A stretch of DNA of 64,000 nt, from positions 1 to 64,000 of IMG/VR virus record IMGVR_UViG_3300044695_006747, one strand, 5' to 3'. Within the stretch, counting starts at the first letter, position 1. Each line of letters starts with the position of its first letter. The translations under genes and the position numbers were made by a program. The notes below the pieces were generated by a model, which was given only the letters and a program-made list of their open reading frames with translations, searched no databases and was not told the DNA's origin. This stretch comes from a virus. Positions 6,300 to 54,151 of the stretch are shown here, one piece after another.

Positions 6300-6308
6300 T
6301 TTTACTCC

Positions 6309-6883: not shown

Positions 6884-6915
6884 ACAAAAAAAATCGGTTG
6901 AAAAAAAGTTTTTTG

Positions 6916-6974: not shown

Positions 6975-6978
6975 GTGG

Positions 6979-7043: not shown

Positions 7044-7062
7044 AACCCCTCTCGTGGGTGGG

Positions 7063-7383: not shown

Positions 7384-7448
7384 GATTCTTTTCCTATGGT
7401 GAAGTGAAAAACCGAATGTACCAAACTAGCCTAGACTGCTCAACCCCC

Positions 7449-7700
7449 TCACACGAGGCAGGGAGCCTCGGTGAACCAGACCTTGCAATCTTCAAGGTAG
7501 ATGCTCTTGTGGATCACGGGCATCTCGCCCACACTATACATACGATCATTTTCCAGACTATCGGCAAACCGAATCGTGACCAGCGTACCGCGAGCATATG
7601 CTGCAACCTTGACGATTTCGCCAGCATACGTCTTGCCGTTATTCTTCTCACACTCGAAACCGAAACCAACCTGAACACTTCCAAACTTCATCATCTTCAT
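7449..7700 (-). CDS. Small beta-rich (SH3/KOW-like) protein
   Basis: GAGGAG RBS; similar to 8243-8479. Confidence 0.6.
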   Translation of the reverse strand: MKMMKFGSVQVGFGFECEKNNGKTYAGEIVKVAAYARGTLVTIRFADSLENDRMYSVGEMPVIHKSIYLEDCKVWFTEAPCLV

Positions 7701-7721
7701 CTCTCCTCTTGTGATACTCTG

Positions 7722-7749
7722 ATTCTACATTAGATATCGTCGATTGCAA
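7722..7749 (-). promoter_or_regulatory. sigma70-type promoter TTGCAA-16-TAGAAT
   Basis: Hexamers with 16-bp spacer. Confidence 0.7.
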
Positions 7750-7812
7750 GAAAAAAAAATAGGAAAAAATCCGTTGGTGAAAACTTCATCGCTGTCATAT
7801 TGGCATGCCATT

Positions 7813-7828
7813 TGGCACGAGATTTGCT
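7813..7828 (+). promoter_or_regulatory. sigma54 -24/-12 box TGGCACGAGATTTGCT
   Basis: Perfect TGGCACG-N4-TTGCT; 4 bp before a palindrome. Confidence 0.75.
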
Positions 7829-7832
7829 GATG

Positions 7833-7900
7833 CTGCCATTTTGGCAGATTTCGCGCGATTTCTGCCATTTTGGCAGTCGCCTTGTCTGCCATTGTGGCAG
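7833..7900. repeat. Palindrome pair 8 plus third copy
   Basis: Exact copies at 7833-7847 and 7862-7876; CTGCCATTGTGGCAG at 7886-7900; a degenerate copy also at 7792-7806. Confidence 0.95.
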
Positions 7901-7963
7901 GTTCTAACCGCCCGGTTTGGGTGGTACAACCCACCCTTATGGGGGATAGGATAATACCCCCTC

Positions 7964-8164
7964 TCAAGAGCGGGGGTAAGTGTATCCAACGTAAACTAGG
8001 CTAATCTTTTCCCTCTCAGGAAACTTCTCAGCGGACAGATAACTCATAGCCTGAGTTTCATTGTCCGCACGAACACAACCGCGGCTTTCGCCATTGTAGA
8101 AAACATTCCAAGTACGAAACTTGCGAATCTTGGGAAGCGAACGGATGAAATCGTTAACGTGCAT
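7964..8164 (-). CDS. Hypothetical protein
   Basis: 66-aa ORF with polypurine leader and promoter 8205-8232. Confidence 0.6.
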   Translation of the reverse strand: MHVNDFIRSLPKIRKFRTWNVFYNGESRGCVRADNETQAMSYLSAEKFPEREKISLVYVGYTYPRS

Positions 8165-28055: not shown

Positions 28056-29378
28056 ATGAAAAGCTATGTAATTAGTTTAAATAGAAGACAAGATAGATTA
28101 AATCAATTTTATAACGACCTACCTAAAGATTGGCCATACGCTAAACCAATAGTATACAATGCTATAGCTGGAAAACAGTGTAACCCTCCTTCTTGGTGGA
28201 ATCAAGGTGGAGGAGCATGGGGATGTTATAAAAGTCATATGAATATTATAGAACAAGAATTAAATAATGATCCTAAGGAAGAAAATATTCTAATTTTCGA
28301 AGATGATGCAATCTTTTGTGAAAATTTTGTTTTCAAAATGCAAAGTTTTTTAAGTATGGTTCCCAAAGATGCTGATCAAATATATTTAGGAGGACAGCAT
28401 TTGAAACCACCAACAGATCAAGGATCAATATATTTAGCGAATAATATAAATAGAACGCATGGTTATATAGTTACAAAAAGGGGTTTATTAACACTATATA
28501 GATGGCTCAATGAAACTAAAGACTGGCCGAATAAATGCCATATAGACCATCATTATGGTCGTGCTCATAGGGATAAAAAAATTATTGCTTATACACCGAA
28601 AGAATGGCTAATAGGACAAAGAGCTGATAATCAGTCCGATGTTAGTTGGAAACCTGTAATAGAAAGATGGTGGCAGAGACCACTAGATAATAGTAATACT
28701 ACAAATAATCAACAGCCAATAATTAAAAATCAAGATATTTTTGTAGCAGTAATTGGTTTGCATAGAAGCGGATCTTCGTGTACGGCTATGATATTACATA
28801 AACTTGGAATTAATATGGGAGATAAACTCGGAGGATACGAAAGTAAAAACGGAGGCGGAGGAGAAGCACAAAGATTAGCTAGTATATGTGAACAAGCAGC
28901 TAGATTTCCATCAACTAATTTTACTTTAAATAAAGATATCATAAAACAAAAACTTAATGGATGGATTAATGAAAGAATGTTAAAAGCCAAAAGGCAGAAT
29001 ACAATTGCTGGAGGCAAGTATCCTCATTTATGTGCTATGGGAGATATATTACTAGATATTTTAGGAGATAGATTAAGAATTATACACTGTGATCGACCAT
29101 TAGAAGATTCAATAGATTCCTTGAAAAGAAGAAGTCAAAAATGCACAGGATGGTTAAATATTTCTGACGAACAAGCAGAAAATGTGCAAAAATGGTTATG
29201 GGAATCTAAAAATACATTTTTACAACAATTAAATCCTAAATTTATATATAATCTAAATCATTATGAATTAATGAATAATCCAGAACAACAAGTAGATAAT
29301 ATTATTAATTTTTTAAATATCGGCGTTACACAAGACCAAAGAAACAATGCAATAAAACATGTCAAAATTTCAGAATAA
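28056..29378 (+). CDS. GT25-like glycosyltransferase fused to a sulfotransferase domain
   Basis: VISLNRRQDR, GCYKSH and FEDDA; C-terminal GLHRSGSS (PAPS-binding loop), KYP and RPLEDSIDS. Confidence 0.8.
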   Translation: MKSYVISLNRRQDRLNQFYNDLPKDWPYAKPIVYNAIAGKQCNPPSWWNQGGGAWGCYKSHMNIIEQELNNDPKEENILIFEDDAIFCENFVFKMQSFLSMVPKDADQIYLGGQHLKPPTDQGSIYLANNINRTHGYIVTKRGLLTLYRWLNETKDWPNKCHIDHHYGRAHRDKKIIAYTPKEWLIGQRADNQSDVSWKPVIERWWQRPLDNSNTTNNQQPIIKNQDIFVAVIGLHRSGSSCTAMILHKLGINMGDKLGGYESKNGGGGEAQRLASICEQAARFPSTNFTLNKDIIKQKLNGWINERMLKAKRQNTIAGGKYPHLCAMGDILLDILGDRLRIIHCDRPLEDSIDSLKRRSQKCTGWLNISDEQAENVQKWLWESKNTFLQQLNPKFIYNLNHYELMNNPEQQVDNIINFLNIGVTQDQRNNAIKHVKISE

Positions 29379-37981: not shown

Positions 37982-40900
37982 ATGGCTAAAGGTTTTAATC
38001 TAACGGCAGAACTTAATATAAGAGGACCTAATAATCTTAGGACTGTTGTTTCTAATATTAAAAAACAGGTTGGAAGTATTACAGCTAATATTACTCCAAC
38101 TGTTAATAGAAGTAATATCAGAACCATAGCGACAGATATTAGATCTCAATTAGGTAATATCAATGTTGCTGTGGGTGTTACTGCTAATAGATCCTCAATA
38201 CAAAATTTATCTAGGGATATTAGAAATAGACTATCCGGTATAGATGTACCAGTTTCTGTTAGAATCAATAGAGCGTCTATAACAGCAGCTAGAAGAGATA
38301 TAACTAGACAGCTTGGAAGCATAAATGCAAATGTAAACATAGCAATCAGTGCCACAGCAACTAGAAATGCTGCTGGTTTAAATAGAACTTTAACCGGGCT
38401 AAATCAAACACTAAATCAAACAACAACATCTGCCACCAATGCCGCTGCGGCAATACAATCTTTTGCTGCTGCTATGAGAGGAGCTGCTAGTGTTAATATT
38501 CCAAGAAATATTAATATTGGTTTAAATACTGCAAATACAAATGCAACTAATGCCGCTGCTAGTGTGCAACAACTTGGTGGAGAAGTAGAAAATTTCGGTA
38601 GACAAGCTGGATTAGCTATTCGTAGATTCGCTGCATTCACCACTGTTACGTCAGTATTTTATGGGTTAGCTAGAGCAGTACAGTCTGGTATAACTTCTTT
38701 TATAGATTTTGATAGAGAATTAGTAAGAATATCTCAAGTTACTGGAGATAACATTAGAGATGTTAATAAACTAGCATCAACAGTAACACAATTAGCAACC
38801 ACATATGGTGTTTCTTCAAAAGAGCTTGCTGGAGTATCGTTAACATTAGCTCAGGCTGGTTTAACCGCTAAAGAAACCGATAGGGCTTTGAAAGCGTTAG
38901 CTCTTAGCGCATTAGCACCATCGTTCGATGATTTAAATAGTACAGTAGAAGGCTCTATTGCTCTTATGAGACAGTTTGGTATTAGTACAAATCAATTAGA
39001 GGGTGCATTAGGTAGTATCAATTCAGTTGCCGCCAAGTTCGCTGTCGAAGCAAGCGATATTATCGCTGCTATTCAGCGTACCGGTGGTGTGTTTGCTGCT
39101 GCTAGCAAGGGCGTTAGCGAAGGAACAGACGCCTTAAATGAATTCGTTGCAGTATTCACAAGTATCCGTGCTACAACTCGTGAAAGTGCTGAAACAATTG
39201 CTACTGGATTAAGAACAATTTTTACAAGAATTCAAAGAGGGCCAACTATTGAGGCTCTTAAACAATTTGGTGTTAATCTAACGGATGTTGAAGGTAAATT
39301 CGTTGGAGCATATAAAGCGGTTCAATTACTTAGTGAAGGATTAACAAGACTAGATCCTAGAGATTTACGATTTAGTCAAATTGTTGAAGAACTTGGCGGT
39401 TTCCGACAGATTGGCAAAGTTATTCCACTTATTCAAGAATTTGCCACAGCACAGGAAGCACTAAAAGTCGCGCAGACTGGTTCTGGTTCTTTGGCTGAAG
39501 ATGCAGCAAAAGGACAACTAGCGCTTGCTGTACAAATATCAAAAGTACGAGAAGAATTTGCTGCTTTAATTAGAAGTGTTGGAGATACATCATCTTTTAG
39601 AACATTAGTTAAATTAGGATTAGATTTGGCTAGTTCACTAATACAGGTAGCAGATGCGGCAAAAGAATTACTGCCATTAATAGGAATATTTACAGCGATC
39701 AGGGGTGCTCAAGCTCTTACCAGATTTGGAGCCGGATTCGCTCAAGGAGTTAGAGGCGCTCCAACAAGAGGTTTTGCTAGTGGTGGATATGTTCCCGGTG
39801 TTGGTAATAGTGATACCGTGCCCGCTATGCTTACACCAGGAGAATTTGTGATTCGTAAAAAAGCAGTACAAAAAATTGGTGTTGGCAATCTAGCAAAAAT
39901 TAATAGAAATAGTGGTGGATATATTCCGGAACAATATTTCAATGATGGTGGTCAAGTACAAAGATTCGGGATAGGAGGAGGAGCCAAGAAAAAAGGGGTA
40001 AATTGGAAAAGTCTTATTAAAGGTAGGGGTAAAAAGGGATCTCGCGGACCAAGAGGTAGATTTGATTTACCACAACCCGGAGATGCAGATTTTGCTAAAT
40101 GGCAACGCGAAATATATGCAGAATACGATGCAGATCCGTCTCTTACAAGAGTAAAAGTAAATGGTATACCAATGCCACCAGAAATTGCTTATGCTAATCA
40201 ACTTATAACTGAAGAAGTTTTTGGTGATAATGTTAGAAAAAAATCTGGAAAACTTAAAAAAACACCACTGGGTTTACTCATAAGTGCTGCGAAAATGCCA
40301 CGAGGGCCACGAGCACCAGCCGGTGAAATGGAAAAAATTATGGCTGGTTATCAGCAATCTCCTCAATTTCAAAAAGAAGCCGGAGGGGCAGGATCTTCTC
40401 TATTCGCAACATTAAAAGGACCATTAGCATCATTTAAAAAGGGTGGTACTTTTGGTGGAGTTATAACCCCAGGATCAGATAATGCTACACAAATAAAAGC
40501 AGCTTTGGGTAAATTACTAACTCAATCATCTGGTCAGGATGCTGTTAAAGCTAAAACAGCATTAGATAAATTCGATTCTTTCATTGCTGGTGGAACACCA
40601 GAAAAACCCGGACACGTTTCTCATTTTACCTGGGCAATGAATCAGATATTCAAAAAAGGAATAGCAACATTTGGTAGGGGAGGATCAGCATCCAGAAGAA
40701 TGGGCGTATTTGATTTTGATATGACAACAGGAATAACGAAACAAAAAGAAACGCCAAGCTTATCTGGTTTTAGAGATCCTAAATTAGCAGTACCAGATAT
40801 ACTTGGGGCTTCTCCTACGGGATTATTAGAATTAATGAAAAAATACGGAGCCTCTAAAGTATTAACTGCTAGAAGTGGTGGGCCAAGAGGAGAAATGAGA

Positions 40901-43900
40901 ACCGCTCTTGGAACATTCTTTAAAAGAAATGGAGTAATGCTACCGTCTTCAAGTATAATGACCCTGGGAGATCAGGTAGGAAATCTTGGCACAGCAGAGA
41001 AAAAGGCCAGAGCACTATATGATATGGTTAAAAAATATGGTAGTGTTGATTTCTTTGATGACGACGCTGCAAATATTGATGCTGCAAAAATGGTCCGAGG
41101 AGTAACCGCTAAAAAAGTTGCTTTAAAAAATAGTGGTGGATATATTCAAAGACTTATGGCTGGTTCATTTGCTGAAGAACCTAGTATATCTGAAATAGCA
41201 CAAATAGTTACACAGTACGCATATCGAGATCCGTCTATTAATTCTGACCCAGCATTACAACAAGCTGTTCTTGCCACAGTAGCCAAAAGAAATAGAACTT
41301 CTGCAAATTTAGCTACTGCTACCAAATTAGCTGGACTAATATCGACAGGCTCGTTAAATCCAAATTTAGCTAGACAAATTCTATCTTCTAGTAACACAAT
41401 TGTACCCAGTGGCCCTAGAGGCAAACCTACTGTACAAGCTCTTTCTTTGCAAGCACTAAAACCTGGAGAAGAAACTAAATTTACTAGAACCATAGACGGT
41501 GAAGAAATAGATATTGTTAGAGGATCTCCGTCAGCAGCTTTGTCAAAACGCATGACATCAGCAATAGACCGAGGTATTCAAGTAGCAATTAAGGGAACTA
41601 TAGAAGAAGCTTTAAGTGATGTTATTTCTAGAGATCCTAGTAAACGGCAACAATTAATTGATTTAGGAGTTAAGTTTAATAAAAGTGGTAAAGCAATAGC
41701 TCCAAAATCTATGATAGATATGGCTATGAAACATGGCCAAATAAATGAATTAAGAGGTAATATATTTGAAAGAACCTTGATGGGACTCGGAGCAACACCC
41801 GGACCAAAACTTCCTGGTAAAGCAGCTCCAGTTGATGCTTTGAGAATAGGAGATATTGTTGCAGACATCATGTCTCAGGGGCCGTCCAAAATATCTTCTG
41901 ATTTACCATCTGAAATCAAAGCCTCTGTACGCAAAACACGACCAAGTGAAGCAACTCCAGATATAAGTAAACGAGGACTAGTTAATCAGATACTCAGATT
42001 CAAGAGATTGCCTGGAGTACAATTTAAAGCAAAAGGAGGTGGTATTGATGGAATAAGATCAGAGCAAGCTAAATCTGCTATTTTAGGTAAACAACTAAGC
42101 GGCGCGGACATGATAAAAGCTGCTAGACGAGCTGGTTATAATATCGAAGAACTAGATAATGGTTTAGTTCAACTATCTCGTAATAATAAAATTATGCATA
42201 CTCTTAGTAGACCAGAAGCATCAAAACTATTAGGAAGTATATCTACAGGATATAATAAAGGAGGTCCAGCAGGATCAGATACAGTGCCAGCACTATTAAC
42301 TCCTGGCGAATTTGTAATCAATAAGAAAGCTGCTGCTAGACTAGGATCAAGCAGATTACATAGACTGAATAGAGCGGATAAAATTAGCGGTTTTAATACC
42401 GGAGGAGAAGTAGGACGCGTTCCAACATATTCGTCTGGTGGTGATGTGCAAAGATTTTTCTTTGGAGGAGGCGCACGAGCAAGACCAGGGATGCAAGCCA
42501 CAGCAGAGAATCTGATGGTTCCCGGAGGAACAATGAATCAATTAAGAGAAATTATAAATGCTCTTAATGAAATGGGACTTGCGTCGTCACGATCTGCAGA
42601 CCTGTTAAGAAGAAGTGGTAGAGTTAGCGTCCAAGCTGCCAATGATGCTTATGAGGCTGATATTCTAAGATTAAGAGTGGCTGGTGCCCCTATGGACACT
42701 ATATTACAAGCCGAAGCCAGACTTGCTAATATGAGACAACAGGGAGCTCAGCAAGTTAGAGCACAAAGACAATTATCGGGAGTAGGAGGAGCTCAATTAC
42801 AAGTAGTAGAAGACGTTGCTCAGCAAAATATTCAAAGAATGTTTGCAAGAGCTCAAGCTGCTGGTGTTGATCTTAATGAAACTCAAAGAGCGCGAATAGA
42901 AGACATGGGCTACAGAAGAGCTTCTCAGGCTGGTGGTCTTTCAACAGCGCAGACAGCGGGTCTTAGTGGTAATGATTTAAGACAATATATCAATGCTGCT
43001 ATGGGTGATCCTAGAACATTTGAACAAATGAATAGACAGTTTGAGGCTAGAAGACGAGCAGAGCTGAATAATCAATATATTGCCGAAAATAGATTTGGTG
43101 GTGATCGCAGAAGAATATTGCAACAAGCTAGTAGAGATGCTGCTGAAGAAGCTAGAATACGAAGACAAACACTAAATCAAACAAGAGGAGCGGCTGGCCC
43201 AGGAGCGAGCACCGGACAAAGGGTTCAGCAAGGAATGTTTGGTGCTAGTTTTGCTATTCCGATGTTAGCTCAAATGCTTGCGGGAGATCCATCGAGAGCA
43301 GCTACTGCTGGTGGAGCAGCTCAATCTGCTGCTATACAAGGAGCAGGAAATACTGTTGCTATGGGAACAATGATAGCTAGTATGTTTCCTCCTGGCCTTG
43401 GTCAAGGTCTAGCCCTAGCTGCTACAGCGGCAGCTTCTGTTGCTCAGGCATTTATCGATGCTAGAAATGCAACAATAGAATTTGAGAAAAATCTAGCAGC
43501 TAAAAAAGTAGAGATGGCGTTGGAAGATACCGGTAGATTATTTGAAAAATTAGCTAAAGATGTAAAAGATATAGATGTGCAAAATTCGATTGGACAAAAA
43601 CTAATAGAAGCAAGCTCAGCTTCGCAAAGAGCAATTGAGATACAGGCCACCACAGCGAAAGCATTTTGGGTCAATATGTTTGATGCATTTGGAGGGGGTG
43701 ATAGAACACAAAGAGCAGAATCTTCACAAAGAAGTCAAATATTAGATAGGTTTGGAACATCGGCATATTTGGAAACAACAACACTCGGACAGGGATTTCT
43801 AGGAGGACGAGGTACCGCTCAAAATAGAGCTAACGAAGCAAGACTGTCTTACACTTCACAAATGATCCCAGAACAATCTAGAGAAATATCTAAACAGTTT

Positions 43901-46900
43901 GCACCTATAGCAGACAATGCTATTAAACTAATAGAAGAAAAAGTTAGGGGTGGTCTTAAAATAGAAGACTATATTAATACAGATGAATTTAAAAAATTAG
44001 GTAATGCAATTGCTTTAGCTAATACAGCAGTTGCCGAGCAAGTATTGAGAATTAGAAATAGCACAATATTAACAGATAGTCAAAAGGCTGCTCAAGAAAA
44101 ATTAATTATTGCTACTTTTGCTGAAGAAGAAGCGCGAAAAAGAGCAAGTATAGCGGCCAGAGAGATACAGTTAAAAGAAGTTCAAAAGGTTACTACTCAG
44201 TTATCTCGTTCATTAGAAAGAATGTTCCAAAACATGGAACAATCGATAAATAAAACTAATTTTGGTCTAGAAAAAATGAGTAGAGAACTCGATCTTGTAT
44301 CAGCATCATTAACAGGACAAGCAAAAGCTGGAGAAGGAGCATTAAATGCTATAAATATTTTACAAAATCCAAGAGCATACGGCGAAGCAGACTTAACAGC
44401 TGCTCGTGGTCAAGCTGCTGGTTTTTTTGGTGGTAGTGGAGATATTATCAAAGGATTATTAACTCTTGGCGATGATATTGAAGCTACAATAATGGGAACT
44501 ATTAATAAGACTGTAAGAGAATCAGAAGGTGATTCTCCAGCTAAAATTGCTATAGCAATAGAAAAAAGTGTTAAAGATAAACTACAAACATTACAATTGC
44601 CATCTGATGTTTCAGAAAAATTAGCACGAGAAGTTAAAGTAGCATTGAATGAAATTCGTAAAGAGGGAGATGAAAAAGCAGATTTTACTCAAATAGAAGA
44701 AAAACTAAAAGATCTTGGACGCATACTAGAGAGCACAAGAAGAGCGCAAGAAGTTGCACTAAAAGCACTAGAAAACTGGCAAACATCTCTTAATAACTAT
44801 ACATCTTCTATTAATACTCTAGCAGATTTACAAATTGATTTTCAAGCCAGATTAAGAAAAAGTTCCGAATTAATTATTGATAGTCAGCTTAATTTGGCTA
44901 GAACTCTTGGTAAAGATATAAGTTTAGAAAATTTGATAGGAAATAGAAACGCTCTAACTAGACAACAAACTGGTGGATTAACATCACCTCAGGATATATT
45001 TAGAAATATCAACAGACTAGAAGCTCAGAGAAGACAACAGGAGGGAGCTGTTGACGTAGCCAGACAAAGAGGACCAACAGGACTCAAAGATTTCATGGCT
45101 ATGTCAAATAGCTTAAAATTAACAAATGTTGCTTTACGAGAAAATTATGATGCTTTAAGGAACCTGGCTGAAAATAGTGATATAGCAGCAGCTGCTTTGA
45201 ATAAAATTCAAGAAGCTCAACAAAGACAACAGGGTAAAGTAGGTTTTATAGAAAAATTAGTAACATCAACACCGGAAGAATTCGAATCTCTAAACAGAGC
45301 CTTCACCAGACTACAAAACAATGCTAACGGACAAGTTAATACTATAAATAATAGTATTGGAGCACAGAAAGCCTATATAGAAGCTATAAATGGTGGAGCA
45401 ACGGCTTTTGAAGCTATGAGAGCAGCACAAACTGCTTTTGCTAACGAAAGAAGAGACACTCTATCAGCACTAAATGATTTACTTCCATTTTTAGGTAGTG
45501 GTCAACAAGCAAATCAAATTAGAGCTAATACTTTGGAAAGTATGTTAATGGAATCTGGAGTTGGTGTTTCACCAATGTTTGCCGATGTTCTCAATGCTCT
45601 AAGAAATCCAGAAACAGATCCAGAAACTCAAAGAGCTATTGCATTATATCAAGAGGCTAATCAATTGCAGCTTGCTGCTAATGCTTTGTTAAATCAAATA
45701 AACCAGTCATTACAAGCTGAAACAGCAGAAAAATCTGCGAAAGCAATAGCAGACGCTTTGGCAAATACAGTTTTAACTTTTAAGAATGCTGAACAGGCAG
45801 ATCTAAATAGAGGTGTTATTCCACAAAATAGAGCAACAGGCGGAATTATTTATGCTTCTAACGGAGCTTTTGCTCCACGAGGAACAGACACGGTTCCAGC
45901 AATGCTAACGCCAGGAGAATTTGTGGTCAATAAAAGTGCTACTGCCAAAAATCTTCCATTATTAAAGAGTATCAATAGTCAAAAATACAGCAGTGGTGGT
46001 AAAGTTAGATATTATGCTGGCGGAGGATTGGTTAGTAGTTATTTAAATAGAAATTCATGGAATATAGACGGATTCCAAGAATCATCAGACAAATTTTTAG
46101 ATCCTTCAAATCCAGACGTATCTGCGTTGTTGGATTCTGGCAAAATGACTAAGAAATTACAGGTATTGCCAAATGTATGGTATAGAATGCCTTCTTCTAA
46201 TAATTTACAAACCCCAAGAAGTGGATCGGTACTAGATCCTAAGAAAAGAATTCCTACAGAACTAAATATTACTGATCTATATCCATCATCAGGAGATATA
46301 CTTCCTGGTATGGTTAGTCATAGTATTAGTATTTCTGATATTATAGAAGCCAATAGATTATCGGCGTCTCCTGGTAGATTAACTCTATCGACTACTCCTC
46401 CTGGTCTAGATAAAAATATAATATTTGGTATTGATGGGGACAAGTCTATAGATCTTATTACCAAAAATATCAAAAAGTCTGAATTTGAGCAATATAAAAA
46501 AGATATGAATAAAGTCAAAAATAATTTTGAGTCCATTAGCTGGATACAAGATGCCGCTAATCCATTATCTTTATTATTAATGTCAAATTTAGGAGATCAA
46601 GGGTATCCAACTACCATAACACCGCTTGCTAAAGATGCTCGTAATCTTAATCCTAATTCTAGAGAAAGAAATAGAGTTCTTTACTATGGTAATCAATTGG
46701 TTCCAGAAGACAAAGACTATGGTAAACTATGGGAATGGACATCAGGAAGCGTAAGAACTAACGCATTAACTATCGGAGATCCTCCTCATAAACCAAATTT
46801 TGATAATACAGCCGAAGATGCGATAAGACAAATAACAAAAATTAGCGCAATAAGCCCCAAAGGCATTAATAAAAGTAGTCCTGGTATAGTTAAACCAAAA

Positions 46901-49900
46901 GAAATAAAAGATATTGTTCAATATCATAAAAAACAATTTGATGTAATTAAAAAATCTGTTATATTAGCTGATAATAATTTTAAAGATATAAAATTTATTG
47001 ATACTCCAGAAGTTAGAAAATATCAAGAATTACAAACTCAATTTACCAATTTATATAATAATCTTTCTCCTTATGAAGTTTTCGAAGATCTTAGCTTATT
47101 CGATCATCCATTTTTAAAAAATGCTAAGAGTTTAATAGTAACTTCTAACGCAGCTCCCACAAGAGATGATATTAAAAAATATATTGAAAATAAACAGGCA
47201 AATCTTGAACCAGGAAGTACGCAGCCAAATAATAATGGAAATCCTATTTTAGTTGGATTATTGGATGCTTTAGATGGCAATTTAAATAATTTAACACAAG
47301 AGTGGGTTAAAAAAAGAGAGTTTGATATATTCCCTCAAGGCCCAGGAGGAGTTAAACAATTTCCATATTTAGTCAATGCAAACATTGGCGATCTAGGCAA
47401 AGGATTTACAGAAAGAGCCAAGCAAGCAGCCCTAGATCAACAGGATAGAATATCTCAAGAATTGGTATTTGATAATCGTAAGATGAGGTTAACTCTTGGG
47501 GCTGGTAAAAATATCGACCTACCATATTCTGCTACATATACAAAATATAGTGGTCCATTATGGGATAATACAACTAAATCATTTAGTGAAGATGCAAACA
47601 AACAATTAAAGGATCTTTATTTACCAGAAGATGCGAATATATTTAAGGGTCTCGATATTTCTAGTCAAAGATTATTTAGTAGCAAACAACCATTCGATTT
47701 AAACGCAGCAGGCTATTCGATTCCGGACAATTCTGCCAATAAGCTAATTGAACTTATTACCAATAATGGTGATCAAAATCAAATAGATCAAGCTAAAAAT
47801 GATATTATCAAAAATAGCACATTAACATTTCCTCATAAAGGACCAAATGCTTCGGGATCATTAGTTAAGTTACAAAATGCTGTTGGTCAACAAATTTTTA
47901 GTGCTTATTCTCAATTACCATCAACAACATTTAATTTTGGTGAATTTTTAGCTCAAGCTATAACAGATTATGCTGTTAATAATAAGAAAGAAGCTGGAAT
48001 TGCTGCTGGTAAAATTGCTGACCAAAAGATGGGCAAAGAAATAATTGGCGATGCTCCAATGGAAACTGTTAGGGTCTTGCAAACATTAACTCAAGGAGCT
48101 TTAAGTGTATTTGGTAGACGTCCAGTACCAGGATTACCAAGAGGTTGGCTATTTAATAATATTCGTTCATTAGGAGGCATTTTACCACGAGGAGGAAGAA
48201 CTTCTGTTGGTAAGTTAACTAATAATGAACAAGCAAAGTCTGCTGCCGGAATTATTCGTAATGTTATTAATAATGCTGGAGCATATGTTAGTAATCTATC
48301 CGGAAGAGTTAATAACCCTCAATTATATAATGGACTTAAAGATGTTTATGGATTAATGTGGGGAGCATACAAAGCTTTTGATTCCATCAATAAGTCTGAT
48401 ACTAGAAATTTAGCTCAATTACTTAAGATTGATCAAGTTAATGCTGGTAATGGAGGATCGGTAGTTGATATAGAGTCCATATTTAGAATGCTCGGAGGAT
48501 CAGCAGCATTTGAAAAAGCTGCCGCAGCACCGTTATCAGAAGACTACAAAACAATGCTTGGTAATCAACTAGTTGGATCAAAAATTACAACTGTTGATGC
48601 GGCTGGTAATATTAAATTGGTTAACCCCGTAGATGCTCCTCCTCCAAAGATTGATAATTATAGCGATTTAATGAATTTAGCATTAAATCCATATAATGAA
48701 TTCTCTTCCAGAACTGTGAGAAGTTCAATATTCGATAAATTAATAGGAGATATTAGTACTGCTGTTGATAATCGAGGAATGCCATACTTTGATCCTAATA
48801 CTTCTAATTTCTTAATAGGATCGTTAGATACGCTTAAAAAATGGTACGGCGGAGATGGTGCTTGGTTAGGACAAGACTATTTATTTGATAAGGCCGCAAA
48901 CGCTGACCCTGTGGCCAGAGGACAACAGTTCACAGCAAATCTGGATGCTGGACGAGGCTTATATGAAATGTCTAATATGGCGCATCAAAATCTTGGGGGC
49001 TCAGTTAAGTTTGGAGATTTACCAAATGATCTATGGTTCCAAAATAGAATAGCAGCAGGAAATTTTGCTACTGGTGGTTTAGTTTATGCTTCTAATGGTA
49101 CTTTGGTGAACTTCCAACCACGAGGCACAGACACCGTTCCCGCTATGTTAACTCCGGGAGAGTTTGTAGTTAATCGCGCTGCTACTCAGAAAAATTTACC
49201 ATTGTTAAAGAGTATTAATAGTAATACTTATATGGCCGACGGAGGATTATTAGAAACTCCAAAAACTGTTCAGGGTGTTACCATTCCAGGTAGAGATAAC
49301 CTGAGTCCACGCATTAATAGAATAGATAAGAATATAGCATATAACACAAGTGGTATTAGTACTATACAAAAAGATATATCAGTTATTAAAGATAGTATTG
49401 ATAAGTTATTGTCTGATCAAACGATGTTGTCTCAAAGTTTAGACACTGTGAATAAATTAAAAAACGATATTATGATGATAGCTGATATGGTTATGAAATC
49501 TCCGGCAGCTATTTATGATCAGATGCTAGTAGCATTACGACAATTATGGACAGAGGTAGGCAACGGACTAACGGCAACACTACAAGGACTTATGAATGCT
49601 CCATGGCCAGCAGTACCCTTTAATAGGGGTGGGCCAGTATATGCTAGTCAAGGAAAATTAATAGATTTTCAACCACGAGGCACAGATACTGTTCCCGCAA
49701 TGTTAACTCCTGGAGAATTCGTGGTTAACGCTAAAGCAACCAAGAATAATTTAGGATTATTACAAAGTATAAATCAGGGAGTTGGTGGATACAGTAGAGG
49801 TGGAGTTGTTTATTTAGAAGATGGTGGATTAACTCCCGGAGCAAAACAAACATTAACAGATTTACAAAATCAAGGATATAATTTACAAGATATTGTGTCT

Positions 49901-52900
49901 GGCAAAACAAGAGTTCCTGGCGTTGTAATAGAGGCATCAAAGATACCAGATGATCCTATGATGCCAACAAAACCAGCCCCAAACATAGAAACATATAGAG
50001 AAAATCCAAGACTATGGAATGGCTTCAAAGATGCTAGTGGTTTTTGGTGGAATAAAAGAGGAGAATCGGTTATAAGCGCATACGGAGCGCCTCCAGCGTT
50101 ACCTAATTTTCAAGAAAGAATGCAAGCATTTGAGTCTATTGTCAGCGCTTTTGCCGGTGCGGGCGGAGTAGGAGGAGGTCGTGGAAAACTAGCAGATGTT
50201 CGCGGTCTGCCTGCGGGAATGCCAATGCAGAGAAATGCTCCAGGTCCACTAGGAACTGGTGTGGCTATTCCGTATAGTATTGGTAGGCCAAATCCTAATA
50301 ATGTGCCAAAAGCGAACTCAGGTGGTCTCACATTAGATGCAATTAGAGATCCATTAACTGGTAACTACTATGTATCAGACACTCCTGCGAGAAATATTAT
50401 TCTTTCTGGACGTCAAGGATTACCAGCTCCAAAAAGTAGACAAAGAGCAAGGTCACCTCTAGATTTAGAAAATGGTAAAATACCAGATTCTATTACCAAT
50501 CCCAAAGCCAAAGAATTTATGCATCTTGCGATAAAAGAAATGATTGGATATACTGAATTCATGAATCTAGTTAAACTGAAAGTGCAAGGATCAGATAGGA
50601 CATATTCTAGTTTATTAAAATTTTTAGCCTTAGATGTATTTCCAAAAGGAAATGCTTACGGAGTTGATTCTCTAGACAAAGCTATTTCATTTTTTAATAC
50701 TCCAGAAGGTATAGAATTATACAATAAAAAAATATCTTCAAAAATAGGTGCGGTTCCAGAAATAGGTGGATATAATGCATCTATAATCAATCAAAATTCT
50801 AAAACCGGTGGTGGTGGTATTACAGAAAGACTATTAAAAGAATTATTTCAACAAAATATATTTCATATTAGTAAAAGATCAGCCAATGTTCCAAACGATC
50901 TTAATTCCAGAATGGTCTCACTGATCCCATCTACAACCGGATTACTATATGATGATAATATAGCAAAACTATTATCTTCTGCTGGCGTTACGCCAAGAGT
51001 CGATTCTAATAGGGTTAGTTATGTATTCGATGTAGACGAGGCAGGCAAGGATTGGGGGCTGCTCAATCCGGATCAAAGAACCTATCTGCAACAATTTGCT
51101 CCAAAAGCAACAGGCAGTGAATCATCCAATATGAAAAGAGGACAGCTAAGAACCTCTCCAAGAGAGAGATTATCTCAGTCGAATACTCCACCCAAGCTTT
51201 CTGATTTTGCTCCTAACGTCACACCCGTTTCGAAAAAAGCATTTCACGGATCAGGATCAGAAATTATGCAAATTGATCCTAATAAATTAGCACAGGGTAT
51301 GTTGGGAGAGGCATTCTATGTTGGCTTTAATCCGAATGAAGCTCCTATTACTTATTTGAAAATGCGACTAGATAGCTGGTTACTTGCGAATAATCTAAAA
51401 AGTGGCAATGTTACACCAGAACAGATAGCCGAGTTTAAAGGAGGAATATACCCTGTTGAAATTATGGGTGGAATAGATGACTTTTTAGCTGCTGATCAAG
51501 TACTAAAAGATAATCCAGCAGCATTATCTAAAATAGAAGCAATATATCGTGATCTTGAGTTAAGAAAAGTTAAACTAGGTCCAATACAATATACCAACGA
51601 TCCCACAACAGGAAAGCCCAAAGTATCAAGAACAGAAAGTCCTCTAGATCTAGCATCCTCAACAGTTATGGATGCATATGATAATATTCAAAATCAATTA
51701 GCAGCTAAATACGAAGCTGAATTTGCTGGTAAGTCTAATATTCCTGATGCAAGATTTGAAGCTCTTACAAGATCCGCCACAGATATGAGGAAAATGTTTG
51801 TGAAGTACGGTATACCAGGATTTACAGATCTAAATAATGCTAGAGGTCAAGGATCTATGGCAGGAATATTTGATATTGATAGAATATCTGTTGGAGATGT
51901 ATATATTCCAGACGAAGTCTTAAGAAAGGTCTTAGGCACAGACGATATTACAGAAGCTAAGCGACAAATAGAATTTATTAAAACCGGCAAATACCCCGAT
52001 CAAGACGCATTCAAAGGTCTTGAAGCAATGGGCGAGCTTCTATCAAAACAACAGCCAGCATATAAGAGCAGAGGTGGAGCAATATATGCTAGTAAAGGCC
52101 AACTAATTAACTTTGAGCCTCGTGGCACAGATACAGTTCCAGCAATGCTCACCCCCGGTGAATTTGTTATTAATCGACAAGCAACACAAAAACATCTTCC
52201 ATTATTACAAGCTATTAACAATGGAGCGCAAGGTTATTCTGATGGTGGTGTGGTTTATTTACAACCAGGTGGTCGTGTACCAGTAAATCCGGCCATGCCG
52301 AGAGGTCCACGAACCAAAGAAGAAAAAGAAGCTTATAAACGAGGAGGTCTAAGAGATAAATTACAAGCTCAATCAAAAAACAGATTTGATACTCAAGCAC
52401 TAGCAGCACAAAAAAATCAAAATGGTAGATTATGGATATTTACTCTTCCACGAGAAGATTTATTGAAAGATGGTGATGGTAATCCATTAAATAATGGTAT
52501 TCAATATTTGCTTAAAGATGCAAACGGAAAACCTTCTGATAATTTATCAACAGAATCTTTAGCTGCTATGGATATTAGTAAAATATTTTCATTAAGAAAT
52601 AATAATGCCAGAGATGCTAAAAAAGACTTGATCAACATGCAGCCCCTCAATATTTTTAAATTAGCAAAGGCAATACCACAAGATGCTGTTAGTGCAATAT
52701 CCAAAGCACGACAACAACAGGCTAGAAAAAGTTTTGATCAAAAAATACTAGATGAGTTATCATATCAGATTCAAACAAAACAAGATATGTTTAGTATTTT
52801 TAATCCCAACTTTTTTAATACCGATGGTGCTATTGTTGATAAATATAATCAAGAAATGTCCGAAATTATAGATCGTATGGATTTGAATAATCCAGCCTCT

Positions 52901-54151
52901 GTAATGGCTGGACTAGCCGCTCTTGGTCCCAAAGTTAAGAAAGTTAAAACTAGAAAAGATTATTTAGAAGAAATTATTAGAAATAATCAGCAGGCAATAG
53001 CAGTACTTAGAGCGGCAAATCTTGATTTTACTAAGTCTGAAAATATGAGAGAAAGCTTTAAAGGTAATCTCCCAACATTTATTCATCAAAAACAAATTGA
53101 TGATGGTACTATTGAGAGGAATAGTGCGGATAAAATTTTGCAAAACTTAATGAATAATCCAAAGATTCAGATGGCATTGCAGAACCCAATAGTAGCACGA
53201 TCCGTACAAGCGGCTTTGATGCAACAACAAGGATTCGGAGTACCAATATCAACATTCGAGGGTGGTCCCGGAGCTGTTAATATTCCTCAAAGATTAGCTC
53301 GTGGTGGAGTTGTTTATGCAAACGATGGAGCATTAGTGGGTTTTCAATCACGAGGAACCGACACAATTCCAGCGATGCTAACTCCTGGAGAGTTTGTGGT
53401 TAACAGAAGATCAGCTCAAAATAATTTACCATTGTTACAAGCTATAAATAGTGGCTTATATAATAAGGGTGGAAAAGTGTCGTATTTGGCTCGCGGCGGA
53501 GCTATTGCAGAAAGACAAGCAAATGCAACATTAAATTATGAAAAACAGATGCTTGAGAGAAGAAAAGCATACGAAGAAAATATGTTAAGAAAAAGACAAG
53601 CAGCAGAAAACGAGATGGAAAGAAGAAGAAATGCGTATGCTTCAGGAACTCCAATTCAGCAAATTACACAACAATTCAATCGGAATAGTGGCCAACCTAT
53701 TAGTTCCAATCAACTGGCTTTCTTGAGTGGAGGAACACCAGGAACAGAAGAACTTAGAAGAGCCTTATCCAATATTAATCAGGTTATGCTACAAGGATCT
53801 CAGTCTCTAAGCACAACACTCACCGCATTATCAAATACCATTAATAATTTTAATACAAATTTTGCTAATATAAATGAAATTAATAAACCGGCCTCAAATA
53901 GTGGTGTATCTAATACTAGTAATCCTGCGGCTACGTTGGATGCTCTTGGAAATAGGCTCAATCAATTTATTGAACAGCTACAAAACGCATTGCCACCAGT
54001 AATTAAAGTTGAAGGACAACACCAGGTTAATGTGGTCATTAATGGAGCTAGTATACTACAACAACTACTATCTGGTCCAATAGGAAATATAGTACAAAGT
54101 GCAATACAATCAGCATTTGACAAACAAAGCAGAAAGAGAGAGGGCTACTGA
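37982..54151 (+). CDS. Giant tape measure protein (5389 aa) with embedded enzyme-like domains
   Basis: TP901-type core near the N-terminus (FDRELVRISQV, INSVAAKFAVEASDI, ETIATGLRTIFTRI), Ala/Gln-rich helices, 7 DTVPAMLTPGEF repeats. Confidence 0.9.
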   Translation: MAKGFNLTAELNIRGPNNLRTVVSNIKKQVGSITANITPTVNRSNIRTIATDIRSQLGNINVAVGVTANRSSIQNLSRDIRNRLSGIDVPVSVRINRASITAARRDITRQLGSINANVNIAISATATRNAAGLNRTLTGLNQTLNQTTTSATNAAAAIQSFAAAMRGAASVNIPRNINIGLNTANTNATNAAASVQQLGGEVENFGRQAGLAIRRFAAFTTVTSVFYGLARAVQSGITSFIDFDRELVRISQVTGDNIRDVNKLASTVTQLATTYGVSSKELAGVSLTLAQAGLTAKETDRALKALALSALAPSFDDLNSTVEGSIALMRQFGISTNQLEGALGSINSVAAKFAVEASDIIAAIQRTGGVFAAASKGVSEGTDALNEFVAVFTSIRATTRESAETIATGLRTIFTRIQRGPTIEALKQFGVNLTDVEGKFVGAYKAVQLLSEGLTRLDPRDLRFSQIVEELGGFRQIGKVIPLIQEFATAQEALKVAQTGSGSLAEDAAKGQLALAVQISKVREEFAALIRSVGDTSSFRTLVKLGLDLASSLIQVADAAKELLPLIGIFTAIRGAQALTRFGAGFAQGVRGAPTRGFASGGYVPGVGNSDTVPAMLTPGEFVIRKKAVQKIGVGNLAKINRNSGGYIPEQYFNDGGQVQRFGIGGGAKKKGVNWKSLIKGRGKKGSRGPRGRFDLPQPGDADFAKWQREIYAEYDADPSLTRVKVNGIPMPPEIAYANQLITEEVFGDNVRKKSGKLKKTPLGLLISAAKMPRGPRAPAGEMEKIMAGYQQSPQFQKEAGGAGSSLFATLKGPLASFKKGGTFGGVITPGSDNATQIKAALGKLLTQSSGQDAVKAKTALDKFDSFIAGGTPEKPGHVSHFTWAMNQIFKKGIATFGRGGSASRRMGVFDFDMTTGITKQKETPSLSGFRDPKLAVPDILGASPTGLLELMKKYGASKVLTARSGGPRGEMRTALGTFFKRNGVMLPSSSIMTLGDQVGNLGTAEKKARALYDMVKKYGSVDFFDDDAANIDAAKMVRGVTAKKVALKNSGGYIQRLMAGSFAEEPSISEIAQIVTQYAYRDPSINSDPALQQAVLATVAKRNRTSANLATATKLAGLISTGSLNPNLARQILSSSNTIVPSGPRGKPTVQALSLQALKPGEETKFTRTIDGEEIDIVRGSPSAALSKRMTSAIDRGIQVAIKGTIEEALSDVISRDPSKRQQLIDLGVKFNKSGKAIAPKSMIDMAMKHGQINELRGNIFERTLMGLGATPGPKLPGKAAPVDALRIGDIVADIMSQGPSKISSDLPSEIKASVRKTRPSEATPDISKRGLVNQILRFKRLPGVQFKAKGGGIDGIRSEQAKSAILGKQLSGADMIKAARRAGYNIEELDNGLVQLSRNNKIMHTLSRPEASKLLGSISTGYNKGGPAGSDTVPALLTPGEFVINKKAAARLGSSRLHRLNRADKISGFNTGGEVGRVPTYSSGGDVQRFFFGGGARARPGMQATAENLMVPGGTMNQLREIINALNEMGLASSRSADLLRRSGRVSVQAANDAYEADILRLRVAGAPMDTILQAEARLANMRQQGAQQVRAQRQLSGVGGAQLQVVEDVAQQNIQRMFARAQAAGVDLNETQRARIEDMGYRRASQAGGLSTAQTAGLSGNDLRQYINAAMGDPRTFEQMNRQFEARRRAELNNQYIAENRFGGDRRRILQQASRDAAEEARIRRQTLNQTRGAAGPGASTGQRVQQGMFGASFAIPMLAQMLAGDPSRAATAGGAAQSAAIQGAGNTVAMGTMIASMFPPGLGQGLALAATAAASVAQAFIDARNATIEFEKNLAAKKVEMALEDTGRLFEKLAKDVKDIDVQNSIGQKLIEASSASQRAIEIQATTAKAFWVNMFDAFGGGDRTQRAESSQRSQILDRFGTSAYLETTTLGQGFLGGRGTAQNRANEARLSYTSQMIPEQSREISKQFAPIADNAIKLIEEKVRGGLKIEDYINTDEFKKLGNAIALANTAVAEQVLRIRNSTILTDSQKAAQEKLIIATFAEEEARKRASIAAREIQLKEVQKVTTQLSRSLERMFQNMEQSINKTNFGLEKMSRELDLVSASLTGQAKAGEGALNAINILQNPRAYGEADLTAARGQAAGFFGGSGDIIKGLLTLGDDIEATIMGTINKTVRESEGDSPAKIAIAIEKSVKDKLQTLQLPSDVSEKLAREVKVALNEIRKEGDEKADFTQIEEKLKDLGRILESTRRAQEVALKALENWQTSLNNYTSSINTLADLQIDFQARLRKSSELIIDSQLNLARTLGKDISLENLIGNRNALTRQQTGGLTSPQDIFRNINRLEAQRRQQEGAVDVARQRGPTGLKDFMAMSNSLKLTNVALRENYDALRNLAENSDIAAAALNKIQEAQQRQQGKVGFIEKLVTSTPEEFESLNRAFTRLQNNANGQVNTINNSIGAQKAYIEAINGGATAFEAMRAAQTAFANERRDTLSALNDLLPFLGSGQQANQIRANTLESMLMESGVGVSPMFADVLNALRNPETDPETQRAIALYQEANQLQLAANALLNQINQSLQAETAEKSAKAIADALANTVLTFKNAEQADLNRGVIPQNRATGGIIYASNGAFAPRGTDTVPAMLTPGEFVVNKSATAKNLPLLKSINSQKYSSGGKVRYYAGGGLVSSYLNRNSWNIDGFQESSDKFLDPSNPDVSALLDSGKMTKKLQVLPNVWYRMPSSNNLQTPRSGSVLDPKKRIPTELNITDLYPSSGDILPGMVSHSISISDIIEANRLSASPGRLTLSTTPPGLDKNIIFGIDGDKSIDLITKNIKKSEFEQYKKDMNKVKNNFESISWIQDAANPLSLLLMSNLGDQGYPTTITPLAKDARNLNPNSRERNRVLYYGNQLVPEDKDYGKLWEWTSGSVRTNALTIGDPPHKPNFDNTAEDAIRQITKISAISPKGINKSSPGIVKPKEIKDIVQYHKKQFDVIKKSVILADNNFKDIKFIDTPEVRKYQELQTQFTNLYNNLSPYEVFEDLSLFDHPFLKNAKSLIVTSNAAPTRDDIKKYIENKQANLEPGSTQPNNNGNPILVGLLDALDGNLNNLTQEWVKKREFDIFPQGPGGVKQFPYLVNANIGDLGKGFTERAKQAALDQQDRISQELVFDNRKMRLTLGAGKNIDLPYSATYTKYSGPLWDNTTKSFSEDANKQLKDLYLPEDANIFKGLDISSQRLFSSKQPFDLNAAGYSIPDNSANKLIELITNNGDQNQIDQAKNDIIKNSTLTFPHKGPNASGSLVKLQNAVGQQIFSAYSQLPSTTFNFGEFLAQAITDYAVNNKKEAGIAAGKIADQKMGKEIIGDAPMETVRVLQTLTQGALSVFGRRPVPGLPRGWLFNNIRSLGGILPRGGRTSVGKLTNNEQAKSAAGIIRNVINNAGAYVSNLSGRVNNPQLYNGLKDVYGLMWGAYKAFDSINKSDTRNLAQLLKIDQVNAGNGGSVVDIESIFRMLGGSAAFEKAAAAPLSEDYKTMLGNQLVGSKITTVDAAGNIKLVNPVDAPPPKIDNYSDLMNLALNPYNEFSSRTVRSSIFDKLIGDISTAVDNRGMPYFDPNTSNFLIGSLDTLKKWYGGDGAWLGQDYLFDKAANADPVARGQQFTANLDAGRGLYEMSNMAHQNLGGSVKFGDLPNDLWFQNRIAAGNFATGGLVYASNGTLVNFQPRGTDTVPAMLTPGEFVVNRAATQKNLPLLKSINSNTYMADGGLLETPKTVQGVTIPGRDNLSPRINRIDKNIAYNTSGISTIQKDISVIKDSIDKLLSDQTMLSQSLDTVNKLKNDIMMIADMVMKSPAAIYDQMLVALRQLWTEVGNGLTATLQGLMNAPWPAVPFNRGGPVYASQGKLIDFQPRGTDTVPAMLTPGEFVVNAKATKNNLGLLQSINQGVGGYSRGGVVYLEDGGLTPGAKQTLTDLQNQGYNLQDIVSGKTRVPGVVIEASKIPDDPMMPTKPAPNIETYRENPRLWNGFKDASGFWWNKRGESVISAYGAPPALPNFQERMQAFESIVSAFAGAGGVGGGRGKLADVRGLPAGMPMQRNAPGPLGTGVAIPYSIGRPNPNNVPKANSGGLTLDAIRDPLTGNYYVSDTPARNIILSGRQGLPAPKSRQRARSPLDLENGKIPDSITNPKAKEFMHLAIKEMIGYTEFMNLVKLKVQGSDRTYSSLLKFLALDVFPKGNAYGVDSLDKAISFFNTPEGIELYNKKISSKIGAVPEIGGYNASIINQNSKTGGGGITERLLKELFQQNIFHISKRSANVPNDLNSRMVSLIPSTTGLLYDDNIAKLLSSAGVTPRVDSNRVSYVFDVDEAGKDWGLLNPDQRTYLQQFAPKATGSESSNMKRGQLRTSPRERLSQSNTPPKLSDFAPNVTPVSKKAFHGSGSEIMQIDPNKLAQGMLGEAFYVGFNPNEAPITYLKMRLDSWLLANNLKSGNVTPEQIAEFKGGIYPVEIMGGIDDFLAADQVLKDNPAALSKIEAIYRDLELRKVKLGPIQYTNDPTTGKPKVSRTESPLDLASSTVMDAYDNIQNQLAAKYEAEFAGKSNIPDARFEALTRSATDMRKMFVKYGIPGFTDLNNARGQGSMAGIFDIDRISVGDVYIPDEVLRKVLGTDDITEAKRQIEFIKTGKYPDQDAFKGLEAMGELLSKQQPAYKSRGGAIYASKGQLINFEPRGTDTVPAMLTPGEFVINRQATQKHLPLLQAINNGAQGYSDGGVVYLQPGGRVPVNPAMPRGPRTKEEKEAYKRGGLRDKLQAQSKNRFDTQALAAQKNQNGRLWIFTLPREDLLKDGDGNPLNNGIQYLLKDANGKPSDNLSTESLAAMDISKIFSLRNNNARDAKKDLINMQPLNIFKLAKAIPQDAVSAISKARQQQARKSFDQKILDELSYQIQTKQDMFSIFNPNFFNTDGAIVDKYNQEMSEIIDRMDLNNPASVMAGLAALGPKVKKVKTRKDYLEEIIRNNQQAIAVLRAANLDFTKSENMRESFKGNLPTFIHQKQIDDGTIERNSADKILQNLMNNPKIQMALQNPIVARSVQAALMQQQGFGVPISTFEGGPGAVNIPQRLARGGVVYANDGALVGFQSRGTDTIPAMLTPGEFVVNRRSAQNNLPLLQAINSGLYNKGGKVSYLARGGAIAERQANATLNYEKQMLERRKAYEENMLRKRQAAENEMERRRNAYASGTPIQQITQQFNRNSGQPISSNQLAFLSGGTPGTEELRRALSNINQVMLQGSQSLSTTLTALSNTINNFNTNFANINEINKPASNSGVSNTSNPAATLDALGNRLNQFIEQLQNALPPVIKVEGQHQVNVVINGASILQQLLSGPIGNIVQSAIQSAFDKQSRKREGY
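39770..53460 (+). repeat. Seven coding repeats GGx(n)G[TS]DT[VI]PA[ML]LTPGEFV
   Basis: Asp codons at 39812, 42278, 45887, 49130, 49685, 52130 and 53360, all in frame. Confidence 0.92.

Follow-up and report, generated by a model that had tools for sequence, protein, structure and literature searches.

A giant phage tape measure protein with seven copies of a conserved module and apparently exchanged inserts between them

The stretch of DNA analysed here, referred to as the window, comprises positions 1 to 64,000 of the virus record IMGVR_UViG_3300044695_006747, a complete IMG/VR genome of 186,823 bp with direct terminal repeats. On its plus strand, an uninterrupted open reading frame (ORF) of 16,170 nt (37982..54151) encodes a protein of 5,389 amino acids (aa), which is the tape measure protein of this complete 186.8-kb phage. 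Tape measure proteins are usually seen as rulers, at most with an added cell-wall hydrolase motif. The present protein contains seven in-frame copies of a single module, and conserved and variable blocks alternate between these copies; at least one of the variable blocks carries an intact domain of a predicted phosphatase. The identity of the ORF is given by its N-terminal part. The stretch aa 268–469 (nt 38783–39388) scores 84.4 bits with PF10145 (PhageMin_Tail), for which the cut-off is 33.2, and seven tape measure PHROGs are matched by the first 600 aa (E values from 1e-24 to 1e-10). No close relatives were found among 50,697 deposited phage genomes, and the matches of the tape measure in this collection were only to Rhodococcus, Bacillus and Gordonia tape measures. 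Metagenomic sequences, in turn, contain at least 571 giant relatives on contigs of up to 240 kb (the search was limited to proteins of 2,963–9,431 aa).

The layout of the protein is given below. R1 to R7 are the module copies, and S1 to S8 are the blocks that they delimit. All module, block and break counts refer to the best 120 of 571 relatives, and a block was considered present when its coverage was at least 40%. The protein of the present phage is denoted P0001, and the 120 inspected relatives are P0002–P0121.

37982..54151 (+): whole tape measure ORF, 5,389 aa, zero cysteine (Cys)
37982..39766 (+): S1, conserved N-terminal tape measure domain, aa 1–595, PF10145, in 106/120 relatives
39767..39961 (+): R1, module copy 1, aa 596–660, the copy most like aa 733–784 of lambda gpH
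39962..42226 (+): S2, variable slot 1, aa 661–1415, in only 5/120 relatives
40688..41131 (+): HAD-superfamily phosphatase domain (predicted) within S2, aa ~903–1050, motifs DFDMT, LTARS, Lys and FFDDD
about 41132..42121 (+): hypervariable sub-block of S2, aa ~1051–1380, containing the claimed PD-(D/E)xK-like motif
42227..42451 (+): R2, module copy 2, aa 1416–1490
42452..45826 (+): S3, conserved backbone block, aa 1491–2615, in 118/120 relatives, helix-forming residues abundant
43232–43462 (+): hydrophobic segment of S3 rich in glycine and alanine, aa 1751–1827
45827..46051 (+): R3, module copy 3, aa 2616–2690
46052..49066 (+): S4, conserved block of ~1,000 aa, fold not recognised, aa 2691–3695, in 61/120 relatives
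49067..49276 (+): R4, module copy 4, aa 3696–3765
49277..49621 (+): S5, short variable spacer, coiled-coil-like (weak coiled-coil family matches), aa 3766–3880, in 4/120 relatives
49622..49846 (+): R5, module copy 5, aa 3881–3955, apparent left crossover of a P0003-like tract
49847..52066 (+): S6, variable slot, apparently exchanged between lineages, aa 3956–4695, in 4/120 relatives
51224..51931 (+): candidate ART-like region of S6, aa ~4415–4650, motifs FHGS, GEAFYVG and GIFD
52067..52291 (+): R6, module copy 6, aa 4696–4770
52292..53296 (+): S7, variable block, aa 4771–5105, in 8/120 relatives
53297..53521 (+): R7, module copy 7, aa 5106–5180, placed where ordinary tape measures have their one module
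53522..54148 (+): S8, C-terminal tail, partly conserved, aa 5181–5389, in 27/120 relatives

The module comprises about 65–75 aa. A glycine-rich lead-in is followed by the core DT[VI]PA[ML]LTPGEFV[VI], by the pattern N..A....L.LL..IN and finally by GG.V.Y. The string TPGEFV is found exactly seven times, at aa 618, 1440, 2643, 3724, 3909, 4724 and 5134, and the D of DTVPA stands at aa 610, 1432, 2635, 3716, 3901, 4716 and 5126. Seven in-frame copies had been reported in a first-pass annotation of this DNA, and their positions were confirmed to within 1–2 residues. The 13 residues of the core DT[VI]PA[ML]LTPGEFV are the same in all seven copies except for one V/I and one M/L position, and the occurrence of such a string seven times in one frame cannot be a matter of chance. 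Across the copies, 14–18 columns are invariant (G, G, D, T, P, A, L, T, P, G, E, F, V, L, N, G, G). The pairwise identity over 70 aa is 43–67% among copies 3–7, and copies 1 and 2 are more divergent (24–34%). A short flanking motif, [FYW]xxGG, occurs 19 times in the protein vs 2.5 ± 1.5 times in shuffled sequences; 14 of the 19 occurrences are located in or beside modules, and three more are found in S2, one directly before the HAD domain. When Pfam, NCBIfam and PHROGs were run on each module, no library model covered it. The structure prediction of three module copies together gave a score of 0.01 with the partner's own fold uncertain, so it has no bearing on oligomerisation.

At the nucleotide level, the copies look very different. 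Each copy has its own choice of codons, nearly all synonymous sites vary, and the longest identical nucleotide run between any two copies is 17 nt. Because the core is invariant and yet no more than 17 identical nucleotides are shared, each module copy is judged to be ancient and kept by strong purifying selection acting on the protein. With such short identical runs, the copies are therefore poor substrates for homologous recombination with each other, and the recombination hotspot that had been suggested at the repeats could not be upheld at the DNA level for the present-day sequences. The same divergence bears on the question of whether the ORF is an artefact, i.e., misassembled or falsely fused, or equipped with repeats made by assembly. 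In one JGI contig (L006, Ga0494335_137, 36,990 bp), a related giant gene appears as dozens of short same-strand ORFs. Most likely, this shattering reflects frameshift errors in the assembly of that contig only, and the small stand-alone matches found there are fragments. For the present gene, an artefact is highly improbable: the genome is complete and has terminal repeats, the ORF spans 16,170 nt without interruption, hundreds of independent contigs carry colinear relatives of 3,000–7,900 aa, and module copies that differ at nearly all synonymous sites are not assembly duplicates.

The module is also present in ordinary tape measures. When one module served as a tblastn query on the phage collection, every match was to an annotated tape measure protein. 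With the module hidden Markov model (HMM), one copy was found about 100 aa from the C-terminus in the tape measures of Burkholderia phage vB_SBP9 (940 aa, 45.9 bits; the gene sits in a lambda-like tail gene set) and Clavibacter phage CN1A (1,436 aa, 39.2 bits), and two tandem copies were found in a Nodularia phage tape measure of 3,282 aa (57.3 and 45.3 bits). A profile made from the seven copies matched mycobacteriophage Douge gp16 (1,699 aa) at 964–1037 and 1412–1461 (E 3.9e-5), and it also found segment 750–786 of lambda gpH. R1 shares 41.5% identity over 53 aa (40.8 bits) with lambda gpH 733–784. The expectation that ordinary tape measures have a single copy was thus borne out near the C-terminus of vB_SBP9, CN1A and lambda gpH. 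Judging from these alignments, the module can be regarded as a homologue of the near-C-terminal module of ordinary tape measures.

In lambda, gpH is known to be cut. The cleavage takes place in the glycine-rich C-terminal region and yields gpH* and gpHC, with the exact site not mapped (PMC12617516). The gpH module segment directly follows a glycine-rich stretch located at about aa 697–745. In T5, processing of pb2 takes place after R1127, which lies between a hydrophobic stretch and an enzyme domain (PMC10038345). By analogy, the present protein might be a true polyprotein, as the first-pass annotation had read it, in which all seven joints are cut during tail maturation, so that about eight fragments would be stacked in the lumen, would leave the tail with the C-terminal end in front and would act individually in the host. 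The homology of the module to the gpH segment after the cutting region, the T5 precedent, the strong protein-level selection on every copy and the location of modules at insert borders (see below) all speak for such processing. Nevertheless, since the lambda site is not mapped (PMC12617516), the module as a cut site is an analogy, as is the whole comparison with lambda and T5. No recognisable protease was found in the protein, which has neither HExxH nor Cys, or among the scanned neighbours. Moreover, a ruler cut before completion of the tube could not measure, so the cutting would have to follow assembly. On balance, cleavage at all seven joints seems possible but rather doubtful.

Comparison with the relatives indicates which parts of the protein are constant. 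Each of the relatives carries 2–8 modules (mode 5), the consensus of 554 distinct module instances is close to the motif in the present protein, and the last module stands a median of 192 aa from the C-terminus. The spacing between modules peaks at 1,000–1,200 aa, which mirrors the near-constant lengths of S3 and S4. From this spacing and the block presence counts listed above, it follows that the protein consists of a conserved backbone with variable slots: S1, S3, S4 and S8 form the family backbone, and S2, S5, S6 and S7 are confined to the closest relatives. Most of these blocks have no counterpart in libraries. When Pfam, PHROGs and NCBIfam were run on every inter-module block, only the N-terminal tape measure domain was matched, and S4 had no match in Pfam, PHROGs, PDB sequences (phmmer) or the ESM Atlas. 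The first ~300 aa of S4 evolve faster than the rest (~30–45% vs 50–85% identity to P0003–P0005). S8 shows only weak similarity to lambda gpH 806–845 and is probably the hub-binding end of the tape measure. Other domains were noticed in the relatives. In P0002, an EF-hand pair (aa ~3955–4005) directly follows R5, where P0001 has an unrelated sequence, and EF-hand loops between modules are also found in P0013, P0017, P0020, P0021, P0025 and P0050. For other members of the family, SNase (in P0102) and SHD1 domains appear in the precomputed Pfam list.

It had been proposed that the module brackets foreign or variable blocks, and the positions at which alignments to relatives break agree with this proposal. 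In several relatives, breaks occur at the end of R1 (aa 661–671), at the start of R2 (1406–1427), at the end of R5 (3952–3964) and just before R6 (4675–4690). In total, 57% of 742 ends of long alignments lie no more than 30 aa from a module vs 17% expected. A particularly clear case is provided by P0001, P0002 and P0003. P0001 and P0002 are 90–100% identical over aa 1–1020 and 1381–3780. From aa ~3900, inside R5, to ~4620, P0001 is 83–96% identical to P0003, and the same tract shows 20–26% identity or no alignment to P0002. Past aa 4620, the identity to P0003 drops to 23–38%. P0001 thus reads as a mosaic, P0003-like at aa 3900–4620 and P0002-like in the remainder. Regarding the idea that homologues would swap cargo at the repeats, this mosaic agrees at its left crossover, which falls in R5, but not at its right crossover, which precedes R6 by ~75 aa. 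A second region of this kind is the hypervariable sub-block between the end of the HAD domain and the start of R2 (aa ~1021–1380), with 28–65% identity to P0002 between flanks of 95–100%. Taken together, these alignments support an exchange of inserts at or near modules.

The best characterised insert is the HAD-like domain of S2, which had been noted in the first-pass annotation and proved to be real. Its motifs I–IV occur in the expected order (DFDMT at aa 911, LTARS, Lys and FFDDD) and align with 12 small HAD homologues, and the domain at aa ~903–1050 has the Rossmannoid HAD fold. No direct match to the Pfam HAD clan was obtained, and S2 gave no family at E ≤0.1; the assignment was made through homologues at E values of 3e-8 to 9e-4, which carry PF00702 and PF11019 above the cut-offs. 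The domain is framed by short glycine motifs: an FGRGG mini-joint immediately precedes it, and NSGGY immediately follows it. P0063 and P0123, which are distant relatives, have this HAD domain between their first two modules as well, and DxDxT is kept. With its catalytic motifs intact, the domain is predicted to be a phosphatase. Some of the small stand-alone HAD homologues (P0131, P0136 and P0138) carry ankyrin repeats at the C-terminus, an arrangement reminiscent of secreted effectors, e.g., Legionella Lem4, the HAD domain of which is among the structural matches.

A 3'-phosphatase of the PNK3P or T4 Pnkp type was considered and rejected, as PF08645 has no match in the genome and only the fold resembles this family. 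The phosphatase domain of T4 polynucleotide kinase/3'-phosphatase (PDB 5UJ0, 1LTQ) shares only ~14% identity with the present domain, and unlike the T4 enzyme, the tape measure has no fused kinase and no Walker A motif. A role in RNA repair was dropped because neither an RNA ligase nor a clear PNK-type kinase was found in the genome, where AAA_33 is matched elsewhere with 12 bits only.

It could also be that the whole polypeptide only sets a tail of ~0.8 µm, with the modules acting as periodic docking sites for the tube lumen or for assembly chaperones, and with the inserts being length-adding filler that partly stems from captured genes and does nothing in the host. Precedents for this exist. 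Phage P23-45 has a tape measure of 5,002 aa and an extremely long tail of ~800 nm (PMC10770324 and preprint), and deletion of an embedded motif from the TM4 tape measure shortened the tail as predicted (PMC1796659). In the present protein, most blocks have no enzyme signature, and insert lengths vary freely among relatives, as would those of a filler. Against this stand the four intact catalytic motifs of the HAD domain and the retention of DxDxT in distant P0063 and P0123, which indicate that catalysis is selected for. The tape measures of relatives contain EF-hand, SNase and other domains, and those EF-hand loops whose position was established are found between modules. Additionally, the length of S4 is near-constant, unlike that of a free spacer. 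A role restricted to length determination and filling is thus considered distinctly unlikely.

The same two precedents bear on tail length. The first-pass annotation took the inserts as a sign that the protein acts as a scaffold instead of specifying a tail of about 800 nm. This opposition does not follow, because the P23-45 tail (PMC10770324) and the TM4 deletion result (PMC1796659) show that inserts can count towards the length. The inserts of the present protein would probably add to its tail, and a tail of several hundred nanometres is expected.

Two further enzyme-like domains had been proposed. In S6, the ART-like assignment draws on a motif pattern and on language-model neighbours. FHG[ST] and G.LGE.FYVG are conserved in all four sequences that share the block, and the ESM Atlas neighbours of the region are ART-PolyVal clusters at 0.90–0.91, just below the marks taken as firm. 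The proposed ART glutamate (of YPVEI) is Asp or Ser in relatives, and the conserved IFD is an alternative. HMM and fold comparisons gave no support: Pfam did not match S6, PF18760 yielded no candidate in the whole genome, phmmer of the region against PDB sequences returned nothing meaningful, a tblastn search with the region as query was empty across 50,697 phage records, and the AF2 model of S6 has a mean pLDDT of 39.7, which makes its Foldseek matches meaningless. The ART-like identity of this region is only a lead. P0151, a protein of 224 aa near-identical to the region, was considered as a stand-alone gene and rejected as a fragment of a shattered giant gene. The proposed PD-(D/E)xK nuclease in the hypervariable sub-block is unsupported. 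The ExK motif is EIK here and ELR in P0002 and P0003 (two of the three relatives with the block), so its Lys is replaced by Arg, the predicted fold over the motif has a pLDDT below 50, and the sub-block has no family match and no homologue outside the four closest relatives.

The proximity to ART-PolyVal brings polyvalent proteins to mind (Iyer et al. 2017, PMC5512222). Both share the concept of a large polypeptide, and polyvalent proteins deliver several conflict-related enzymes along with the DNA; among language-model neighbours, ART-PolyVal comes closest to the S6 region. Polyvalent proteins differ in being typified by a zincin-like metallopeptidase (MPTase) processing domain, and the present protein, with zero HExxH in 5,389 aa and one verified enzyme domain only, carries a repeated joint and does not belong to this group. 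They have not been linked to tape measures in that work, in which the word "tape" never occurs.

A property shared by the whole protein is the exclusion of cysteine. There is no Cys in 5,389 aa, and only 42 Cys residues occur in 654,553 aa across 121 family members, 99 of which have none. The other ORFs of the genome with at least 150 aa contain 1.6% Cys (ATG-started, six-frame, some possibly not genes). Four ordinary tape measures (Nodularia, Burkholderia, Clavibacter and lambda gpH) have zero Cys as well. As Cys is absent throughout, the inserts are subject to the same rule as the ruler. This would fit a scenario in which all parts share the fate of the ruler, being stored in the lumen and passing through the tube and periplasm.

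Considering these observations together, we propose, with a rough probability of 0.6, that the tape measure is a ruler carrying cargo, in which a backbone alternates with exchangeable inserts fenced by joints that operate at the protein level. S1 and R1 would represent an ordinary-looking tape measure start, followed by serial units of a block and a module and, last, by the C-terminal tail. The backbone blocks S1, S3, S4 and S8 may set the tail length, bind the tip and form the channel. The slots S2, S5, S6 and S7 would hold the exchangeable inserts, of which at least one is an intact HAD domain, a predicted phosphatase. The lack of Cys would place the whole polypeptide in the tail-tube lumen and have it ejected ahead of the DNA, so the inserts might reach the host envelope or cytoplasm ready-made. 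The modules would be joints derived from the single lambda-type module that follows the glycine-rich cutting region of gpH. As a working guess, R7 at least could have a lambda-like role in maturation or tip docking, and the internal copies could serve as additional cutting sites or else as flexible joints for docking. A stronger version, in which the module is a self-contained processing signal and the lumen holds a train of separate backbone pieces and swappable enzymes (HAD and a possible ADP-ribosyltransferase) fired ahead of the DNA, is regarded as unlikely, somewhat more so than cleavage at the joints as such.

Several points weigh against the cargo-carrying ruler. The HAD domain is the sole insert domain that was verified, and S4, S6 and S7 have no recognised fold. 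The clustering of alignment breaks is partly expected anyway, since conserved modules beside variable glycine-rich linkers end BLAST alignments, and as the 120 relatives are not independent, a formal p-value for the clustering is inflated. On its right-hand side, the P0003-like tract ends ahead of R6 and not within it. The presence of the inserts in the virion, their ejection and their activity are presumed. Siphovirus tail tubes have a narrow lumen, in which folded domains could be stored only in an unfolded or staggered form. No tail sheath family matched anywhere in the genome, ORF 57002–58453 matches baseplate and tail-fibre PHROGs, and family searches of the other neighbouring tail genes, which are very divergent, gave no match. 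Because these genes are almost without family matches, the tail type is only inferred.

Comparison with known systems helps to define what is particular to the cargo-carrying ruler proposed here. Lambda gpH (PDB 8IYK; PMC12617516) has the same joint module, located after a glycine-rich sequence and before a C-terminal tail, and it likewise contains no cysteine. It differs in that its 853 aa hold a single module and lack an enzyme domain, whereas the present protein has seven modules, separated by inserts, in 5,389 aa; gpH has been documented to be cleaved, which can be suggested here by analogy. P23-45 gp96 (also P74-26, G20c and TSP4; PMC10770324) is a giant tape measure with an enzyme, an injected virion RNA polymerase, to which the predicted HAD phosphatase may be compared. 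The one enzyme of gp96 is N-terminal, neither a multi-copy joint nor exchangeable slots have been reported for it, and no sequence relationship to the present protein was detected in the phage-collection search. Mycobacteriophage tape measures, such as Douge gp16 (PDB 8ZDO, PMC13033339) and TM4 gp17 with its mt3 motif (PMC1796659), also have internal functional motifs. Their inserts are small cell-wall hydrolase motifs, they contain at most two modules in contrast to the seven found here, and no exchange of cassettes at modules has been described for them, whereas the alignments support it for the present family. In the literature covered, which is incomplete and cannot prove absence, no giant modular tape measure and none with HAD or ART domains was found described, and no paper was found on multi-copy joints fencing exchangeable inserts. 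The present genome contributes the clean mosaic, the well-supported Pnkp-like HAD insert, the codon-level evidence for selection on the protein and the family-wide Cys count.

If the proposal holds, the ruler of the present phage and of hundreds of uncultured relatives would be a modular carrier, in which a fixed backbone alternates with exchanged slots fenced by copies of the element that adjoins the unmapped cutting region of lambda gpH. Should the joints be cut, a sequence signal for tape measure maturation, a question open in lambda since the 1980s, would be identified, and a second route by which phages deliver ready-made enzymes would exist besides the capsid-packed ejection proteins. 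If every joint were cut, the siphovirus tails of a large uncultured family could be seen as programmable multi-effector injection devices. Should the joints stay uncut, the family would show how folded enzymes are stored in and threaded through the tail tube, for which the near-total absence of Cys may be a clue. In either case, the modules provide a simple sequence handle to find and split such proteins in metagenomes.

Other features were observed in the window. Two adjacent ORFs, 20295–21689 and 21765–25583, encode proteins of 464 and 1,272 aa, each with the major tropism determinant's N-terminal domain (Mtd_N, ~53 bits); they are probably paired receptor-binding fibres. In the structural gene region, a 440-aa ORF (28056–29378) matches phage glucosyltransferase PHROGs (E 1e-7). 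Finally, the first 8 kb form a compositionally distinct block adjoining the terminal repeat: positions 1–8000 have 43–47% G+C and a negative GC skew, and the remainder of the window has 31–41% G+C and a positive skew.

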